Positions 5,449-31,528 of a stretch of DNA of 32,000 nt are shown here, piece after piece. Positions within the stretch are counted from its first letter, which is position 1, and each line of letters begins with the position of its first letter. Both the position numbers and the translations under genes were made by a program. The notes beneath the pieces are model-generated. The model searched no databases, was not told where the DNA came from, and saw only the letters and a list, made by a program, of their open reading frames with translations. The stretch lies in contig NZ_CP066020.1 of assembly GCF_016127575.1 (NCBI RefSeq), positions 360,001 to 392,000 on the forward strand, read 5' to 3'. The stretch is from Cupriavidus necator. GTDB lineage: Bacteria > Pseudomonadota > Gammaproteobacteria > Burkholderiales > Burkholderiaceae.

Positions 5449-5550
5449 GGCTTTCCGTGAAAGACGCGGCAAATTCTAAAGCTTTCGCCTTCAGGTGCGG
5501 CGGAAATCAGCCTGAGAATGATACGCGGCGCAACATGCGCGCCGGCCGCC

Positions 5551-12284: not shown

Positions 12285-12875
12285 ATGCCTAGCGGCCTCT
12301 TTCAATGCGCGCACTGCGGCGGCGCGCCCACCTACGTCGCCGGCCGGCTCCAGGCCGTCATCGCCTGCGACGAATGCGGGATGTCAACGCCGCCGGTCGA
12401 GAACGATCCCAGGAATAGGGACGCCGCCTTCCCGCGACTCAGCGCCATCTGGAACAGCCGCGTCGACCTTCGCCCGGCCGACAAGGAAGCCATCTCCATG
12501 ATCGCCCGGCGTGCGCTGACCTCCTCCGACATCCCCTATTTCCTCAATCTTCTCGCCTCCACAACCAGCGACTGGGAAGCCAACGGACCGATGTTCGCGA
12601 CGATGGCTGCAGCCCTTACCCAGCCCGGCTACGAGTTCAAGCACGTCGGCCCGCCCGAAACTGTTCTCTCGCAAGCCGCCCGCTACCAGAAGCTGCTGCA
12701 GCGCGCGAAGGTCATCCATATCGATGGCGCTCCGATGGTGCGCTTTGAGCATGTGCCGGCCTTGGCCGCGGAAGTCGCGGAGGAGGGTCTGGCGGATCAG
12801 GATTGGCCGCTCCTCGACATGGAAGAATTCGTCGGTAAGGCCATCGACAGCCTGCCGGATCATTGGCAGCCTTGA
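12285..12875 (+). CDS. Protein with an N-terminal Lar-like (restriction alleviation) zinc ribbon (196 aa)
   Basis: FQCAHCGGAPTYVAG...VIACDECGMSTPP...RLSAIWNSR matches the Lar family pattern CxxCGG...CxxC...WNxR. The C-terminal ~125 aa are unassigned. Confidence 0.65.
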   Translation: MPSGLFQCAHCGGAPTYVAGRLQAVIACDECGMSTPPVENDPRNRDAAFPRLSAIWNSRVDLRPADKEAISMIARRALTSSDIPYFLNLLASTTSDWEANGPMFATMAAALTQPGYEFKHVGPPETVLSQAARYQKLLQRAKVIHIDGAPMVRFEHVPALAAEVAEEGLADQDWPLLDMEEFVGKAIDSLPDHWQP

Positions 12876-12932
12876 CTTTGCCCAGCGGCGGGCAAGCTGA
12901 AGGCGTATCCACTTCAACGGAATTCCCCTCAG

Positions 12933-13822
12933 ATGACCCGCCAGCTTCTCGCAGCAGTCGTTCTCTCCCTTGCATCCCTCACGGCAAGCGCACGGGACAC
13001 GGGACAGGCCTGTGCTCACGTCCTGCCTACGGGCCAACCCACGACTCAACCAGCGGGCCGCACGCAGTTGCTGTGCTACCGCGCCTACGCCGTTCTCTAT
13101 TCGAGCCAGACACGCACCGCGCTGTGGTCTGCCGAGCGTCTCACGCGGGAGGCCGTCGACGCCGCGCGCAAGCTGCCACGCGACAGCGACTTCTACGAAG
13201 AGGAGCGACTGCCCGAAGCCGACCGCGCCAGGCTGGCCGACTACCGACGCGGATCGGGCATGGATCGAGGGCCCCGAGCGGCGACTTCCCGGACAAGGCG
13301 TCCCAAGCCGAGAGCTTCAGCCTCGCGAACGTTATCCCCCAACACAGCGTGTCGAACCGCCGCACCTGGAGTCACATCGAGACGTCCACACGCAGGCTGG
13401 CCCGCCAGCACGGTGCGATCCAGGTGGTGACCGGCCCCGCATTCGTCGGCACCCCGAGGACGCTGGGCCACGTGCACATCCCCGACTTCATTTGGAAAGC
13501 GATCCACGTGCCAGGCATTGGCGCCGCCGTCTACCTTGTCCGCAACGACGCGACGCCCGCGTACAGTGTCATTAGCGTCGCAGAATTGCGGCACTTTGCA
13601 GGGATCGACCCGTTTCCGACACTCCCCAAGGCCATGAACGCCACGGCGATGGACCTGCCCCTTCCCACCCCGCACCCTGGTGAGAAGGCGGCGCGCCGCG
13701 TCGCGTTCGCATGGCTTGCATCGGGCGAAGCCGCCGCGGCCTCGCGCGCGACGGAGCCTCTCCACCAAGCCATCCGGGACGCAAGTGCAATCCTGTCGCT
13801 GGCCCTCGCCCACGCACGTTAG
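12933..13822 (+). pseudogene. Secreted DNA/RNA non-specific (DRGH-type) endonuclease, frameshifted within the catalytic motif
   Basis: The frame from 12933 gives a signal peptide (MTRQLLAAVVLSLASLTASA) and ...LADYRRGSGMDRG, then degenerates. The -1 frame continues APSGDFPDKASQAESFSLANVIPQHSVSNRRTWSHIETSTRRLA...VVTGPAF to 13822. The break is at the C4 run at 13272-13275. Confidence 0.8.
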
Positions 13823-13840
13823 CCAGCCATCTCGACCGCG

Positions 13841-13858
13841 GAAGGAACATGTTCCTTC
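13841..13858. repeat. Perfect 18-nt palindrome GAAGGAACATGTTCCTTC, copy 1 of a 16-nt core that recurs at 22723
   Basis: Read directly. The AAGGAACATGTTCCTT core is identical at both sites. Confidence 0.9.
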
Positions 13859-13868
13859 AGAAAAAGCG

Positions 13869-13895
13869 AAAGGCACGCCAAAAGACGTGCCTTTT
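13869..13895. terminator. Bidirectional intrinsic terminator between the convergent nuclease and HU genes
   Basis: AAAGGCACG-CCAAAAGA-CGTGCCTTTT forms a 9-bp stem flanked by an A-run and a T-run. Confidence 0.7.
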
Positions 13896-13922
13896 GCATG
13901 CAAACACTGCTCCGGATGCTGA

Positions 13923-16271: not shown

Positions 16272-16497
16272 ACTATCCAACACGGTCCACTTGATTTGAT
16301 TGAAAAAAATGCCGGTTCAATTTCCGGCGTGAACAACTGGCACCGCAAGGCCCGGTTGCCCGGCTTTGGGTGTTGAATTTGCCGCGCAGATGTCGGCGAG
16401 GTCGATGCGTCGGGGACGCTGAAGGTATGCCAAGCATAAACCAAAGCTCCGAGCCGTCGCAACGAAATCGCCGGCAATTTCGCGAGCTTTCGAAAAC

Positions 16498-17709: not shown

Positions 17710-18261
17710 ATGGAAAAGCTCGCGATCAAAGTTGCCCTCAGCCCGCTGACGACACCGCGGCTTTGCGCACAACTCGCCGAGATCAGCGATCCCCGCCTGC
17801 GGGCGGAGGTGCTCCGTCGCCTGGCGGAGTTGGGCGCGGAAGCAATTCTTTCGGCGGGTAGCGGCGCAGCTGTGCAACCGCCCGCCGGCGGGATCCTTGC
17901 TGCGCTTACCTACCGGCCAGACAGAAATCCCCCTCCCACCCCTGCACCTGCACCTGCACCTACCCCTGCACCTGCACCTACACCTACACCTACACCTACA
18001 CCTACACCTGCGCCTGCACCTACACCTGCGCCTGCACCGGGTCCGGCTCCGGCTCCGGTTCAGGCGCTGGCTCCGTCCAGCGCAGCCCCAACTCGCCTCG
18101 AAGCCCAGCCAGCAGACACCATTGCCATGAGCTCGCAAGCCGCCTCCCAGGCATCGGTCAGCAACATTGCGCCCCAGGAACCTGAGGGCCAAACGGTTGG
18201 CCCTCAGGGCAATCTGGACCTGAACGCTGTGAACTCGGCGATGTCCAGGTTCTTCGATTGA
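17710..18261 (+). CDS. Protein with a ~45-aa N-terminal domain, a long Pro-Ala/Pro-Thr linker and a C-terminal tail (183 aa); positional equivalent of a ParM adaptor
   Basis: The start is 10 nt after the ParM-like stop. Contains ...PPPTPAPAPAPTPAPAPTPTPTPTPTPAPAPTPAPAPGPAPAPV... Confidence 0.7.
   Translation: MEKLAIKVALSPLTTPRLCAQLAEISDPRLRAEVLRRLAELGAEAILSAGSGAAVQPPAGGILAALTYRPDRNPPPTPAPAPAPTPAPAPTPTPTPTPTPAPAPTPAPAPGPAPAPVQALAPSSAAPTRLEAQPADTIAMSSQAASQASVSNIAPQEPEGQTVGPQGNLDLNAVNSAMSRFFD
17935..18057 (+). repeat. In-frame tandem hexanucleotide repeat (CCTRCA/CCTGCG/CCGGCT), about 20 units
   Basis: Read directly: cctgcacctgcacctgcacctacccctgcacctgcacctacacctacacctacacctacacctacacctgcgcctgcacc... 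Confidence 0.9.
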
Positions 18262-22363: not shown

Positions 22364-22722
22364 GGTTTCTCACGAGAAACAGTCAAAGGGATTTCCTGGA
22401 CGGATGCCAGGCGATTATTCGATGCTCGGAAGAGCAAGGAATCCAATGAGGCGCGCTTAGAACGGCAACGCGCTTGCGACATGCCATGCATGTCGTAAGG
22501 ACGCTGCCCGAATGCGGCAATAAATGGAATGTGGCGGACCGCCAAACGGGCCTGTGCAGCCCAAGCGGAATGTCAGTGCAATCTAACCGCCGAGTCGATG
22601 CGTCAAAGACGCTAGAGGTGTCTGCACTCTACACGGCTAGTCAATGCATGACAAGTTCGCCGCATTCACATCGAGCATCGAATCGAATCGCGAGTCCAAA
22701 TCCCGAGTATTCGCAATTTCGA

Positions 22723-22738
22723 AAGGAACATGTTCCTT
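22723..22738. repeat. Perfect 16-nt palindrome AAGGAACATGTTCCTT, copy 2
   Basis: Read directly. It is identical to the core at 13842-13857 and lies in the 690-bp intergenic region. Confidence 0.9.
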
Positions 22739-22972
22739 CCAAAACTCCCGCTAACTCCCAGCAGTGGGGTTCACTTGTCTATACAACTCTACCCGTCTGA
22801 AGAGGGTGATACCTAAAATTCGATTGGTCCAAGTCGTTAAAAAGCACAGCGAAGCACTGCTGATTCGAGCTTGACTTTCGAAAGCTATCTGTTTTTCCCA
22901 AGCTTTTGAGCCATTCTGCCCCTCGACATCGGCATATGCTTCCGACCCAAGATCGCCGCATCCGTTGTCTGC

Positions 22973-22999
22973 TTGACATTTGCTTCTACCGTGTAAGTT
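22973..22999 (+). promoter_or_regulatory. Promoter-like element TTGACA-N15-TAAGTT upstream of the coiled-coil/FlhDC-like operon
   Basis: CTTGACATTTGCTTCTACCGTGTAAGTT, ending 53 nt before the ATG at 23053. Confidence 0.4.
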
Positions 23000-23052
23000 G
23001 AAGTGGCTGCCGCGATCACCGGGGCTACAACACCATTCCGTAGGGGCAACCA

Positions 23053-24219
23053 ATGAAGAAGAAAGAAGAAGAAAGTCGCGAATTCAACCTGGTCGATCCA
23101 AAGTCGCCAAACGCTATGCGCGAACTGGTGACCCAGCAACTGGGTCACTTTATCGACGCCGGCGCCATCGGGCGCATCGTGCAGGCAGCGCAGGAGATCG
23201 AGCTCTCCCGGAAACGCATCCTGGCCGAACACACCGCCATCGGGTCTCGGCTATTCCAGATCTACCACTCCATCCTGACGTGCGTGCAAAAGCGATTGGG
23301 CGACACGCCGCGCGCCCGCCAGGAAGCCGATGACAGTCTGTACGCCCTCGCCGTCAGGGGCATGCGCATTTCACGCGCCTCGGTAATCAAGTATCTGCAG
23401 GCATTTCATCACTTCTCAGAGAACCACGACGCCTTGACGTTTCTGAACCTTGGCGAACTGACGATCCTCAAGCGTTCGGACATCACCAACGAGGAAGTAC
23501 AGCGGTTCATCGACGCGCGCAAGAACGATGAATCCTATTCGCGCAAGGAGATCCTGCCTTATATCGAGTGGTCTCGACGCACGCACCAGGACCTCAATCA
23601 CGTCATGGCCACGCTGGAAGCCGCGGAAGAGCAACTGAACGAGAGTCTGGAGCGCCAGCGCGATCTCGAAGCCCAGATGCGCCACATGCGTGAGCAAATG
23701 AACTCTGCGGACGCGCTCAATGCTGCGCAGAAGGATCAACTGGATCGCACTTCTGGCGCACTCACGTCCCAGCAGCACGCCATGGACAGCCTGCAGCTCT
23801 CCATCACCAGATTGAACGAAGAGCGACAAGCCTTGCAGAAGGCATTAGCAGATTCAAGGATCCGAGAGGTAGTGAGGGAGGTGAAGGTCGAAGTCGTTCC
23901 CGCTGAATACAAAGACCTCTCCGACGCCGTCATCGGTGAAAGCAGCAAGCTCGACGCCACAAAAGCGCAAGTCAAGGAAGCTGAGCGACGACTGGCGGAG
24001 GTCAACGCCGAACTTGAGCAACACGAGGCAAAGGAGGCTGACTCAAGAAGCCTGGCGCTGCGCATCGACGGCCTGAAGGCCGATCTCGATGATGCGCTCG
24101 CCAAGCTTCGAAGCTCCGTCAAGGCAATCAAGGTAAAGGAGCATGGCGCCGCGCTGTTGTCCTTGCGCCGCAGTGCGGAGGCATTCCACAACGAACTGAT
24201 CGCTATCACCGGAGCTTGA
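23053..24219 (+). CDS. Coiled-coil protein (388 aa) with an N-terminal, possibly ParB/KorB-like HTH region
   Basis: The N-terminal ~170 aa are globular (RISRASVIKYLQAFHHFSENHDALTFLNLGELTILKR). Residues ~185-388 are heptad-like and rich in E/Q/L/A/R/K. AGGGG lies 7 nt upstream. Confidence 0.8.
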   Translation: MKKKEEESREFNLVDPKSPNAMRELVTQQLGHFIDAGAIGRIVQAAQEIELSRKRILAEHTAIGSRLFQIYHSILTCVQKRLGDTPRARQEADDSLYALAVRGMRISRASVIKYLQAFHHFSENHDALTFLNLGELTILKRSDITNEEVQRFIDARKNDESYSRKEILPYIEWSRRTHQDLNHVMATLEAAEEQLNESLERQRDLEAQMRHMREQMNSADALNAAQKDQLDRTSGALTSQQHAMDSLQLSITRLNEERQALQKALADSRIREVVREVKVEVVPAEYKDLSDAVIGESSKLDATKAQVKEAERRLAEVNAELEQHEAKEADSRSLALRIDGLKADLDDALAKLRSSVKAIKVKEHGAALLSLRRSAEAFHNELIAITGA

Positions 24220-24221
24220 CG

Positions 24222-25394
24222 ATGCAATCCACGCTTACCCGTTCCATCTTTGAGCAGTTTGTTCTCCCGGCCTGGGTGCGAGATCGCGTGCTTTCCGCGA
24301 ATCTCCGGATCAGCAACTACGTCCTGAACACGGTATCGGTGCATCCGACGCTGGAGAACGTTTTCAGGGTCTCCAGCGAAAACCTTCGGTCGCTTCGTGA
24401 AAATATCGGCCAGTCGTCGAAGGTACTGGGGACGTCATTCCTTGCTTACGCACCGACGCTCACGACCGTGGAGGACTGGCGTTCGTTCATTGAGGGCAGG
24501 ATGCCGACGGTCACGATGGAACGCCTCAAAGCAATGGTGCCTCACAGCCTATCAGTGGTGGACAGGCTGGCGCTCGAGCACACCAACCGCTCGTACATCA
24601 ATGCTGTGTACGACCTCCTGAACATGTCGGTGTTGGCAGCACCGCTGATCGGCATCTCCAACGAATTGGCGTCGTACCTGCGCTCAATTCCGCAGCACCA
24701 ATTCGACGTGGCCATGACCGAGCGTCTGATACCGCTCTTCCATTGGCGCTTTGCGGACGAGATGTTCTGGCTGGAAATCCACACAGGCCGACTCTCGCGG
24801 GAGATGATTGCCCACTACCTGATGGAGACCTCGCCGCTCCGCTCGGACCGCTTGCCCCACTCTGGCGTATGGGGCAAGTTCCGCCTGGAGACGTTCGAGC
24901 GCGATGCTCTGTTCGAAGCGTTTCTGTCCTTTAGCTGTCGGGCCATGAGCGTTTGTTCACTGTTCAATACCAGCATTGAGCATACGAGGAAGACCTACCA
25001 GCGCATACACGGGAAGTCCTCACCATCCGGCCAACCTCCTGCTTCGCTGATGTGGTACCTCGAATCCGCGCAACGCCGCGTTCAGGCGACATTCCAGATC
25101 TGGCTGTTTCGGTCCGCTATCGCCTGTGACGTCTCGACGCCGGAAAGCTTCGTCGCAATGCTAGACATTCACCGGGCCTTTTTTGCGGACGATTGCAATG
25201 TCCCGGCCGAGCGCTCCCTGCATCTGGCCCGCTCCATGTCGACGAGCGAGGAACTTGCGGTTTGGCCCTGCCGGAAGTGCGGCACACCCTATCTGGCATC
25301 GAACTCCTCCGCGAAGATCGAGCTTTCGCAGTCGTTCCTTTGCCCGTGCTGCAACGGGACGTTGATCCCCTCGCGTGGCGGGCGCCGGAACTAA
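24222..25394 (+). CDS. Putative transcriptional activator with FlhD-like and FlhC-like regions in one polypeptide (390 aa)
   Basis: ATG at 24222 with GGAG 7 nt upstream and a 2-nt gap after the preceding stop. Residues ~120-180 ([55 protein letters not shown]) resemble FlhD. Residues ~225-385 ([28 protein letters not shown] ... LHLARSMS ... [11 protein letters not shown] ... SFLCPCC) resemble FlhC, including its Cys4 zinc site. Confidence 0.8.
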   Translation: [390 protein letters not shown]

Positions 25395-26428
25395 TGCGAA
25401 ACTACTTCGTCATCGCAGCGTGCTGCGCGGGCCCGGTTTGGGCAACTGGGAGCGCGCCACCGCCCGTCCAGTTGCCCGAGGCGCCCGCGGCAGCTGCGCT
25501 CAGGATGAACGTGGCCGATCCAACCTACTCCGAAGGCTCTGGACAGCTCGCGCTCTTCAAGGGCGTCAACACCTTGCGCCAGAAGCTTGGTGTCGGGCTG
25601 CTCGCGCAGGACGCCGCGCTCGACACAGCTGCCCAGGCACATGCCGTCTATCTCAGTGCCCACAGCGTGGCGCAGCATGACCAGACACCTGGGTCTCAGC
25701 ATTTCTACGAGGCCACGCCACTGCTGCGCGCGCAGAAGGCCGGTATCGGGGATTCCCAGTGGGTAGCCGAAGTCGTGGGCGCGGCCAGGGGGCCGAACGA
25801 CCGTGAGATTGGCCTCGGCTGCATCGACCAGTGGTACCACACCGTCTATCACCTGCAGTCCCTTGTGACCAACCAGGAATCCATCGGTATTGGGTACAGC
25901 AGCATAGGTGCCTTAGGCCTGAACCATTGCGTTCTGGACTTTGGCACGAGCACTGCCACGCAGCCAAGCCCTACCCCCAACGGCGTGCCCTACGGGGGCG
26001 GTCAGCAGTTTGACGCTGAAACTTTCGTCACTGTGCCGGCGGACGGCGACATCGGTGTGCAGGGCGGGTTCAATTTCGCCGGCGAGTCGCCAAATCCCGC
26101 GCCAGACCTGCCTACGCCGGGCCGGCCTCTGATGGTGTACGCCAACGGCGCGCTCGCGGAAGTGCTATCCGTGACGGCCTTCAAACTTGTGGCCAGAAAC
26201 GGCGCCGAGATGCCTGCACGCGTATTGGTGTCCCCCGCCGCGAAGGCGGATGGTTCTGCTGGTGTTGCCGACGAGTACCTACGCAACAATGCGGCCTTCC
26301 TGCTCCCGCTCGCGCCCTTGGCTGATCGTGAGACCTACACGGCTTCTTTCACGGGCACTCGGGCCGGTAAGCCGGTGAGCCTTTCCTGGACCTTCAGGAC
26401 TGCAGCACCCACCACGGCCTTGCGATAG
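25394..26428 (+). CDS. Secreted CAP/SCP-domain protein (344 aa), paralog of 27040..28062
   Basis: The start overlaps the upstream stop (TAATG). Signal-like MRNYFVIAACCAGPVWA. CAP-like FKGVNTLRQKLGVGLLAQDAALDTAAQAHAVYL. Blocks shared with the paralog: VYHLQSLVTNQESIG, GESPNPAPDL, SWTF. Confidence 0.8.
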   Translation: MRNYFVIAACCAGPVWATGSAPPPVQLPEAPAAAALRMNVADPTYSEGSGQLALFKGVNTLRQKLGVGLLAQDAALDTAAQAHAVYLSAHSVAQHDQTPGSQHFYEATPLLRAQKAGIGDSQWVAEVVGAARGPNDREIGLGCIDQWYHTVYHLQSLVTNQESIGIGYSSIGALGLNHCVLDFGTSTATQPSPTPNGVPYGGGQQFDAETFVTVPADGDIGVQGGFNFAGESPNPAPDLPTPGRPLMVYANGALAEVLSVTAFKLVARNGAEMPARVLVSPAAKADGSAGVADEYLRNNAAFLLPLAPLADRETYTASFTGTRAGKPVSLSWTFRTAAPTTALR

Positions 26429-30435: not shown

Positions 30436-30936
30436 TCACTGGAAAGTGAGGGTGAAGGTGGCAGTCGCGCTGCACACGGCGCCAGCGGTCGCCTGATCCG
30501 GCAGGTTCGCCTGAGTGAACGTGGTGGTTCCCACGGCCAGCGAGACGTAGTCCTTTAGGCCCATGGCCGTGCTGACACACTGCTTCGCAGTTTGGGCATT
30601 GCCTCCGCCGAATCGGATCACGCCTTGTGAGCCGGCACTTGCGGCAGACAACGTCACCGCGTTGCCCCATGGATCCAAGAGCGTGGTGCCGCGCACCATG
30701 TCGGACGGGAACATCCCGCCGGTGATCATTGCCGGAATGTTGGCAGTGGTGAAGTTGGTGTACCCGTTGCTCCCCTGAGAGAAGCCCGCGCGGGCGTTCG
30801 TGATCAGCTGCGAGATGTTGGTGGCCACCACGCTTGCCTTGTGGTTCTGGAAGCCGTTATAGCCTGCATAGGCGATACCAGCGAGCGCGAGCAGGCCCAG
30901 CACGATGGCAACGATCCGCCCGAGAATCCCATCCAT
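30436..30936 (-). CDS. pilS: PilS-like type IVb major pilin, copy 2 (166 aa)
   Basis: ATG at 30936 with GGGGA upstream. The protein differs from copy 1 at about 21 of 166 positions, and the first 41 residues are identical. Confidence 0.75.
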   Translation of the reverse strand: MDGILGRIVAIVLGLLALAGIAYAGYNGFQNHKASVVATNISQLITNARAGFSQGSNGYTNFTTANIPAMITGGMFPSDMVRGTTLLDPWGNAVTLSAASAGSQGVIRFGGGNAQTAKQCVSTAMGLKDYVSLAVGTTTFTQANLPDQATAGAVCSATATFTLTFQ

Positions 30937-31027: not shown

Positions 31028-31528
31028 TTACTGAAACGTGAGTGTGAACGTCGAGGTGGCGCTGCATGCCGCACCTGCGGTGGCCTGGTCGGGCAGGTTG
31101 GTCTGATTGAAGGTCGTCGATCCGATCGCCAGCGTCACGTAGTCCTTGAGGCCAAGGGCGGTGCTGACACACTGTTTTGCCGTCTGCGCATTGCCGCCGC
31201 CGAAGGTGATCACCCCCTGCGATCCGCTATTGGCCGACGCGAGCGTGACCGCATTTCCCCAGGAGTCGATCAGCGTGGTACCGCGCACCATGTCGGACGG
31301 GAACATGCCGCTCGTGATCATCGATGCGACGTTTGCCGTAGTAAAGTTGGTATAGCCGTTGTTGCCCTGCGAGAACCCGGCGCGAGCGTTTGTGATCAGC
31401 TGCGCGATGTTGGTCGCCACCACACTGGCCTTGTGGTTCTGGAACCCGTTGTAGCCCGCATAGGCAATTCCAGCCAGTGCGAGAAGGCCCAAGACGATGG
31501 CGACAATGCGCCCGAGAATGCCATCCAT
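31028..31528 (-). CDS. pilS: PilS-like type IVb major pilin, copy 1 (166 aa)
   Basis: AGGAG 7 nt upstream. MDGILGRIVAIVLGLLALAGIAYAGYNGF is a hydrophobic pilin-type N-terminus. A Cys pair (C119, C155) is typical of a pilin D-region. The gene sits directly after pilR. Confidence 0.75.
   Translation of the reverse strand: MDGILGRIVAIVLGLLALAGIAYAGYNGFQNHKASVVATNIAQLITNARAGFSQGNNGYTNFTTANVASMITSGMFPSDMVRGTTLIDSWGNAVTLASANSGSQGVITFGGGNAQTAKQCVSTALGLKDYVTLAIGSTTFNQTNLPDQATAGAACSATSTFTLTFQ

Follow-up and report, generated by a model that had tools for sequence, protein, structure and literature searches.

The window analysed here is a stretch of 32,000 nucleotides (nt) from Cupriavidus necator (positions 360,001 to 392,000 of contig NZ_CP066020.1), and this work concerns two adjacent genes within it, encoding a protein of 388 amino acids (aa), hereafter the partner, and a 390-aa regulator (Table 1). 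The region carrying both genes (23053–25394) is 100% identical to the megaplasmid pHG1 of C. necator H16 (NC_005241.1; window coordinates correspond to the coordinates of that record minus 328,856). It shares 70–93% identity with pMOL28 from C. metallidurans CH34 and with plasmids from C. oxalaticus, C. taiwanensis and C. pauculus. pHG1 is typed as conjugative (MOBH, MOBP; MPF_T), and pMOL28 is typed as MOBH. RefSeq describes the partner as a hypothetical protein (WP_011154250.1) and the regulator as an "FlhC family transcriptional regulator" (WP_011154251.1). Both open reading frames (ORFs) lie where a first-pass annotation, made from the DNA letters alone, had placed them, and its central proposal was borne out: a single polypeptide combines FlhD-like and FlhC-like regions, its gene shares an operon with that of a coiled-coil partner, and both are carried by a conjugative element. 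We conclude that the 390-aa protein is a single-chain regulator of the FlhDC family with the domain order D'-D-C, where C is an FlhC-like domain, D an FlhD-like module (module 2) and D' a more degenerate N-terminal module (module 1).

Table 1. Features of the partner and regulator locus (window coordinates) and the basis of each assignment.
Feature	Position	Strand	Basis
Intergenic region, divergent, between the minus-strand ssb/primase operon and the partner gene	22364..23052		ORF map, RefSeq
Perfect 14-bp palindrome AGGAACATGTTCCT, candidate operator	22724..22737		Present three times in 42 kb of transfer region
Partner gene, 388 aa, WP_011154250.1	23053..24219	+	ORF map, RefSeq, coiled-coil Pfam matches, model
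Junction: GGAG Shine-Dalgarno, TGA 24217-24219, 2-nt spacer, ATG 24222	24211..24224	+	Sequence read
D'-D-C regulator gene, 390 aa, WP_011154251.1	24222..25394	+	ORF map, RefSeq, homologue alignment
Putative module 1 (D'), residues 14-100	24261..24521	+	hhalign to module 2, helix/strand order, collinear D-D protein
Module 2 (D), residues 108-205	24543..24836	+	FlhD profile, Pfam in relatives, hhalign
Linker, residues ~206-226	24837..24899	+	AlphaFold2 pLDDT < 50 for 206-226
FlhC-like domain, residues ~225-390	24894..25391	+	Pfam FlhC, PDB sequence matches, Foldseek
Cys4 zinc-ribbon site (C350, C353, C374, C377)	25269..25352	+	Invariant in 24 members
CAP-domain gene	25394..26428	+	ATG overlaps regulator stop; CAP Pfam E = 4e-9

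The Pfam FlhC family (PF05280) matched residues 251–388 of the window protein with 23.4 bits (E = 5.7e-5; cutoff 27). The isolated C-terminal half reached 26.4 bits against the same cutoff, and the NCBIfam FlhC model gave a similarly weak match. In a family alignment of 24 diverse members, with identity down to 19%, every member was matched by Pfam FlhC, most of them over the cutoff and the best with 48.3 bits (E = 1.2e-12). The four cysteines at positions 350, 353, 374 and 377 are invariant across this alignment and align to the zinc cysteines of the CxxC...CxxC pattern of FlhC, which, together with the Pfam matches in the relatives, confirms the FlhC pattern and Cys4 site claimed by the first-pass annotation. 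A profile of 19 Cupriavidus homologues recovered the FlhC chains 2avu_E and 8j56_C as its two best sequence matches in the PDB, over FlhC residues 19–161. Foldseek searches of the PDB with the AlphaFold2 (AF2) model also yielded FlhC chains at the first three positions (8j56_C, 8j56_F and 2avu_E; probabilities 1.00, 1.00 and 0.98), with low TM-scores (0.32–0.35) that we attribute to the low predicted local distance difference test (pLDDT) values in this part of the model. In a profile search of 1.84 billion representative sequences, about 100 proteins of 160–220 aa matched profile positions ~225–390 only, and the C-terminal half therefore corresponds to an independent unit of FlhC size. Nine other proteins of ~340–420 aa (P0044, P0055, P0070, P0073, P0084, P0094, P0115, P0126 and P0141) are each matched by the FlhC-like profile in two places. 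They seem to have a tandem FlhC-FlhC organisation, which would represent another uncharacterised single-chain architecture in the superfamily.

Module 2 is homologous to FlhD across FlhD residues ~10–97. With the window sequence alone, the match to E. coli FlhD was not significant (BLASTP E = 0.073), and the isolated module gave a sub-threshold match to Pfam FlhD (PF05247; E = 0.17). Pfam found no FlhD match in residues 101–215 of the window protein, phmmer with the single sequence found nothing in the PDB, and a Cupriavidus-only profile gave an hhalign probability of less than 1% against FlhD. The match of module 2 becomes significant with a profile of the more diverse family. With the module 2 profile (residues 108–205, 24 sequences), the top three matches among 177,635 distinct PDB sequences were all FlhD: 8j56_A, the FlhD of C. 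necator (E = 1.5e-6, spanning FlhD residues 14–97 of 111), 5hxg_B (E = 0.004) and 1g8e_A (E = 0.007). The hhalign comparison with an enterobacterial FlhD alignment yielded a score of 34.4 (76% probability), as against a mean of 12.8 and a maximum of 24.2 in 150 column shuffles and 21.8 for the reversed control. Pfam FlhD also matched three divergent full-length relatives in the region corresponding to module 2, the profile register being identical (P0060, residues 115–193, E = 3.6e-5; P0029, 121–194; P0034, 120–193), and the standalone FlhD of locus L036, described below, matched module 2 with 97.6% probability (hhalign, E = 4e-12). BLASTP, hhalign and HMMER all picked the same segment, aligning window residues 118–182 to E. 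coli FlhD 10–74, in agreement with the FlhD match that had been claimed for residues ~120–180. Within this segment, FHWRF (173–177) aligns to CHFRF (65–69) of FlhD, and R176 is invariant. The Pfam test of both halves that the first-pass annotation had proposed thus gave support for FlhD and FlhC at the level of the family, the window sequence alone being below threshold for both.

The same annotation had noted an N-terminal extension of ~110 aa. This extension is present; however, residues ~14–100 appear to form a degenerate second FlhD-like module rather than an additional domain of another kind, so that the architecture would be D'-D-C and not X-D-C. AF2 was confident at residues ~20–200 (pLDDT 83–91) and predicted the same order of elements twice: helices 17–40, 42–48, 52–60 and 62–69, strand 76–78 and helix 83–91 in module 1, and helices 112–133, 139–143, 147–155 and 158–168, strand 173–175 and helix 180–188 in module 2. 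The profiles of the two modules aligned over 78 of 87 columns (hhalign 86% probability, E = 4.7e-6) with a score of 32.7, the maximum of 150 shuffles being 19.4 and the reversed control 8.6, and conserved positions fell at equivalent sites (N27/N122, Y76/F173 and W86/W183). It could be argued that the protein has one FlhD-like module only and that its first ~100 residues are an unrelated helical domain, involved for example in partner binding or signal sensing, the resemblance between the modules being due to convergence or to an artefact of helical composition. Indeed, module 1 had no direct significant FlhD match, either in the PDB or with the enterobacterial FlhD profile, and its match to the standalone FlhD was weak (15% probability, E = 0.0017); for want of a direct match, module 1 by itself can be called FlhD-like only through module 2. 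However, such an origin is difficult to reconcile with the extent and score of the alignment between the modules, with their common order of secondary structure and with the equivalence of the conserved Asn and Trp residues. Furthermore, a free 205-aa relative, encoded at locus L042 and described below, is collinear with both modules and has halves that are themselves 40% identical (E = 1e-16), which provides independent support for the module 1 reading. We consider it rather improbable that module 1 is unrelated to FlhD.

A scan with a profile built from a 10-sequence subset of the 24-member alignment identified 32 loci in Cupriavidus, Ralstonia, Caballeronia, Paraburkholderia and Burkholderia (one genome per species), and the regulator is encoded by one intact ORF in 31 of them. 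The gene is split only in L013, where the primase and single-stranded DNA-binding protein (SSB) matches are also duplicated or split, which points to a low-quality assembly. Among 72,556 plasmids searched by tblastn with the window protein, 69 records, all from Burkholderiaceae, had a match running uninterrupted over 80% or more of its length. Of these, 40 are predicted to be conjugative, plasmids of clinical Burkholderia are included, and nearly all of the records are annotated just as "FlhC family"; no IncC or SXT-type plasmid was found in this search at E <= 1e-3. The first-pass annotation had raised the concern that a frameshift or a sequencing error might have joined two genes. The split gene of the draft locus L013 could be cited in favour of such an error, but the ORF is intact in the remaining loci from five genera and in all 69 plasmids, and two independent H16 records are identical. 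The fusion is not an artefact, and the probability that it results from a frameshift or an assembly error is, in our estimation, negligible.

The partner lies directly upstream of the regulator in all 30 loci in which the contig allowed this to be tested. In a model built from a Cupriavidus-only alignment, and of modest quality, it is all-helical, with an N-terminal helical domain (~19–157) followed by long helices (164–218, 223–267, 284–356 and 361–386). Both Pfam and the predicted structure confirm the coiled coil that had been described; only coiled-coil families matched the protein, and its PHROGs matches were coiled-coil noise. The first-pass annotation had also seen a possible ParB-like helix-turn-helix (HTH) in the partner and an arrangement reminiscent of BisD. 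On inspection by eye, ISRASVIKYLQAF...LNLGELTIL bears a loose likeness to the HTH of ParB. We rejected this HTH: Pfam found no ParB N-terminal or HTH domain in 16 partner orthologues, Foldseek retrieved nothing better than E = 0.5 from the PDB and no ParB, a profile of the N-terminal domain matched no ParB, KorB or other HTH protein among PDB sequences, and PHROGs provided nothing either. A distant relative of the regulator, the fused protein of L037, is preceded by a 294-aa protein with no detectable relation to the partner.

BisDC is the activator pair of ICEclc, an integrative and conjugative element (ICE). BisC is FlhC-like and has an extra N-terminal dimerisation domain, and BisD is a large multi-domain upstream partner that is required for activation and acts as a ParB-CTP (cytidine triphosphate) clamp (PMC12409273). 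The pair described here resembles BisDC in that an FlhC-like subunit with an extra N-terminal domain is accompanied by a large upstream partner, as in that ICE-encoded activator pair. The gene order, with a large partner ahead of an FlhC-like protein, recalls bisD-bisC, and the recurrent 14-bp palindrome of Table 1 could in principle be a loading site, from which a partner acting as a ParB/CTP clamp, loaded at a parS-like site, would slide to promoters bound by the FlhC-like protein. However, the analogy with BisD fails at the level of domains because the partner has no ParB or HTH signal in any of the searches described above. The regulator also differs from BisC, which belongs to DUF2857 and lacks the zinc site (PMC12409273), in that its own zinc site is invariant and that it has no match to DUF2857 in Pfam at E <= 10. 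A mechanism of the BisDC type is therefore very improbable for the pair of pHG1. In a separate observation, E. coli FlhD and the FlhD of L036 gave weak matches to DUF2857 at its N-terminal end (first ~70 positions; E values of 0.02 and 0.073), and because two FlhD proteins do so, BisC may itself be a D-C fusion, with an FlhD-like N-terminal dimerisation domain.

Comparison with the gene neighbourhoods of the nearest FlhC-like relatives that stand alone revealed a series of split, tandem and fused forms. In the split form (L036, L040 and L043/L044), a partner homologue of 354–368 aa is followed by FlhD (104–110 aa) and FlhC (180–192 aa), the D and C genes overlapping by 1–11 nt, and the FlhD proteins score over the Pfam FlhD cutoff. 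In the tandem form (L042), a partner homologue is followed by the 205-aa protein and by FlhC (179 aa). This 205-aa protein is collinear with positions 16–202 of the fused family, corresponding to window residues 15–201 (94% probability, E = 1.4e-7, 182 columns), the identity of its halves extends over 80 residues (BLASTP), and from its sequence it can be regarded as a free-standing tandem D-D. The fused form, partner followed by D'-D-C, is that of the window family. Nearly the full length of the proteins upstream of the separate FlhD and FlhC forms is homologous to the window partner (hhalign 98.9%, E = 3e-17; 97.6%, E = 3e-12; and 95.6%, E = 1.2e-8), and the partner therefore co-occurs with the FlhD/FlhC modules in split and fused forms. 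The split triads and L042 share with the window the homologous partner, an FlhD corresponding to module 2, an FlhC corresponding to the C-terminal domain, the gene order and a conjugative setting, since the split and tandem modules stand directly beside genes for a TraI_2 (MOBH) relaxase and a coupling protein; they differ in that D and C are encoded by separate overlapping genes in the triads and that the tandem D-D is encoded by a free gene in L042. These split and tandem sequences come from metagenomes or unstudied genomes and are uncharacterised, and blastn of the split triad against sequenced plasmids gave no match.

The regulator belongs to the FlhDC family by the homology of both of its parts, and departs from it in being one chain, in its duplicated D, of which one copy is highly degenerate, and in having a third conserved component. 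FlhD4C2 forms a six-membered ring in which FlhD outnumbers FlhC two to one and which an FlhC dimer closes; DNA binds on FlhC, at a basic patch and at the Zn-Cys cluster. Within the FlhD dimer, the Cys65 residues of the two chains are adjacent at the dimer axis and form a Cys65-Cys65' disulfide (PMC3510510). The regulator shares the Cys4 site with FlhD4C2 (E. coli 2AVU and C. necator 8J56), to which its FlhC-like domain has its best sequence and fold matches, and its two D-type modules per C domain agree with the 4:2 subunit ratio in that ring. AF2 predicted no more than two strands in the N-terminal region (76–78 and 173–175), and both occupy the positions aligned to FlhD 65–67. Given two D modules per C and strands at these positions, an intramolecular pseudo-dimer is the simplest model: the two D modules would most likely pack together as an intramolecular copy of the FlhD homodimer, and the flexible linker would tether this D'-D unit to the FlhC-like DNA-binding domain. 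Two chains could then dimerise to give four FlhD and two FlhC units, as in the FlhD4C2 ring, with DNA contacted through the FlhC-like domains. The regulator is probably co-transcribed with the partner and translationally coupled to it: the 2-nt spacing of the two genes noted in the first-pass annotation holds, and the GGAG lies 7 nt upstream of the regulator ATG. The coiled-coil protein would probably serve as a third component, either a co-factor or a modulator.

In addition to the lack of a direct FlhD match for module 1, several observations weigh against this interpretation. FlhD Cys65 is replaced by Phe173 in the regulator. The ~18 N-terminal residues of FlhC have no counterpart in the regulator, the alignments beginning at about FlhC residue 16–19; the segment without aligned counterpart includes the residues I6 and V7, needed for FlhC dimerisation in E. 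coli according to Li et al. (PMC3510510), and ring closure may therefore work differently or involve the partner. No FlhD chain was present among the best 50 Foldseek matches of the full model in the PDB, which may reflect the intertwined dimer fold of FlhD, or differing 3Di states in a single chain, and which counts weakly against an FlhD fold. The C-terminal domain was modelled by AF2 with poor confidence (pLDDT ~50–65), the window protein alone remained under both Pfam cutoffs (FlhC 23.4 bits against 27; FlhD 12.6 bits), and the operator search described below, in the pHG1 transfer region and in the upstream regions of the relatives, defined neither an operator nor a regulon. Despite these points, a single-chain D'-D-C regulator with an intramolecular pseudo-dimer, forming a D4C2-like dimer, accompanied by its partner and activating transfer operons, is the best overall explanation of the data, to which we assign a probability of about 0.7.

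The activator role is suggested by the likeness to SetCD, AcaCD and BisDC and by the gene context. SetCD (SXT/R391 ICEs) and AcaCD (IncA/C) are likewise regulators of the FlhDC family in MOBH-type conjugative elements, and the expected role is the activation of transfer genes; the split relatives of the window protein are also found beside TraI_2 relaxase genes. However, SetCD and AcaCD consist of two separate small subunits, whereas one ORF encodes the whole regulator in 31 of the 32 loci and in every one of the 69 plasmids. To our knowledge, no coiled-coil third gene exists in the SetCD and AcaCD systems. In contrast to flhDC, the regulator gene is plasmid-borne, lies among transfer rather than flagellar genes and has a coiled-coil gene upstream. 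The partner/regulator pair is preceded by a minus-strand operon for three hypothetical proteins, SSB and a primase, and followed by CAP-domain genes, a type IVb pilus operon and VirB/Trb genes of a type IV secretion system (T4SS). In the conserved synteny, PRTRC-D is followed by the minus-strand primase, SSB and three hypothetical genes, then by the partner and the regulator, sometimes by a small hypothetical gene, and finally by the CAP gene and a convergent pilus operon. This layout is present even in a relative at 19% identity, and the divergent arrangement around the intergenic region, where the partner-regulator operon presumably has its promoter and control sequences, is kept in 30 loci. 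The partner/regulator module belongs to the backbone of conjugative plasmids of the pHG1/pMOL28 type.

The regulator would most likely activate backbone or transfer operons. An FlhDC-type protein might, however, act only on the CAP and type IVb pilus genes or on the ssb/primase operon, or act as a repressor, rather than being a master activator of transfer. The CAP, pilus and divergent ssb/primase genes are precisely the neighbours conserved most tightly, the operator search linked no operator to T4SS or relaxase promoters, and good -35 boxes, atypical of activator-dependent promoters, are found in the promoter-like sites nearby. On the other hand, SetCD and AcaCD, FlhDC homologues of ICEs and plasmids, activate many transfer operons (PMC4207636, PMC4542580), and the split relatives directly adjoin relaxase and coupling-protein genes. 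Such a limited or repressive role is unlikely in our view, and transfer activation is preferred.

The palindrome AGGAACATGTTCCT looks like a candidate operator or a centromere-like site. It occurs three times in the 42-kb transfer region of pHG1, with 0.08 copies expected, and all copies are intergenic: one at window positions 13843–13856, one at 22724–22737, 329 nt upstream of the partner start codon, and a third outside the window (L001, 41097–41110), 110 nt upstream of a VirB11-like gene. In pMOL28, L004, L005, L006 and L012 it is likewise present ~315–330 nt ahead of the partner gene, and it was the sole candidate retained from the operator search. A flanking GAGCTTTCG element was rejected as part of this operator, its arrangement being inconsistent. 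An 11-mer conservation scan of 30 upstream regions found clade-specific words only and no universal motif. The sequence CTTGACTTYG was mildly enriched (10 occurrences against 3.1 expected), and promoter-like sites with the layout CTTGAC-N16-TAnnnT were present at window positions 5550, 12871, 16497 and 26960, with a weaker one at 22870. They are probably the promoter-like sites listed in the first-pass annotation. Because they have good -35 boxes, they suggest sigma-70 rather than activator-dependent promoters, and the CTTGACTTYG sites were rejected as operators of the regulator on account of their resemblance to ordinary sigma-70 promoters. Positions 16401–16426 and 22594–22619 share a 26-nt element (GTCGATGCGTC-N3-GACGCT..AGGT; 81% identical) with a short inverted repeat inside.

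Downstream of the pair, the regulator TAA overlaps the ATG of the CAP-domain gene (TAATG, 25392–25396), and this reported coupling is real in the present sequence. A CAP gene is located downstream of the pair in most loci, a small hypothetical gene intervening in many of them. RefSeq places the start of the CAP-domain gene at 25505, which is probably too late, since the ATG at 25394 adds a lipoprotein-type signal (MRNYFVIAAC) with a lipobox. Elsewhere in the window, a region of ~1 kb without RefSeq annotation (12876–13922), between a Lar-family gene and an HU gene, contains a 319-aa ORF (12863..13822, TTG start) and ends at the first copy of AGGAACATGTTCCT; a pseudogene, or a gene overlooked in the annotation, may lie here. 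At 17923–18062, tandem repeats of 6, 12 and 18 nt (CCTGCACCTACA-like) form eight overlapping copies of a 44-nt unit within ORFs on both strands and, depending on the true frame, may encode a Pro/Ala/Thr-rich low-complexity linker. Within the pilus operon, two type IV prepilin genes that are paralogous and lie side by side account for a 300-nt direct repeat (30438–30737 and 31030–31329, 76% identity).

The FlhC relationship of the regulator is already known, as it appears in public annotation. We found no report of the FlhD-like modules, their tandem duplication, the fusion or the conserved partner in targeted full-text searches covering literature outside the subscription journals. A 2015 figure marks some pMOL28 genes as transcriptional activators, with a legend that does not name the genes. 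In the phn island of Delftia sp. Cs1-4, an FlhC orthologue has been described near LexA-like and primase genes with no adjoining flhD (PMC3318190), and a fused D-D-C protein could explain this FlhC without FlhD. More broadly, the FlhDC regulators of MOBH elements might be three-component systems in which a coiled-coil protein of ~350–390 aa is obligate, acting as a scaffold, a DNA bridge or a gatekeeper, with Burkholderiaceae having fixed the FlhD2:FlhC ratio in D'-D-C by way of the tandem D-D form that survives; we put this forward tentatively, as a generalisation that is somewhat less probable than its failure.

FlhD4C2 is a textbook hetero-oligomeric activator, and its relatives SetCD, AcaCD and BisDC act as master switches in plasmids and ICEs through which resistance and catabolic genes are spread. 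In a single D'-D-C chain, the subunit ratio would be fixed genetically, making it a simpler object for structural and DNA-binding work, and such a chain would explain the annotation of "FlhC without FlhD" in some elements. The split, tandem and fused forms provide a clear example of the passage from a hetero-oligomer to a multi-domain protein through subunit duplication and subsequent fusion. If BisC (DUF2857) also proves to combine FlhD and FlhC in one protein, single-chain FlhDC would represent a general design, so far unrecognised, of the master switches of ICEs and plasmids. The conserved coiled-coil partner points to a component that is absent from current models of FlhDC-type switches. 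The regulator is, finally, an obvious handle on the transfer of at least 69 plasmids of Burkholderiaceae, among them plasmids from clinical Burkholderia and from C. necator H16, an industrial strain.

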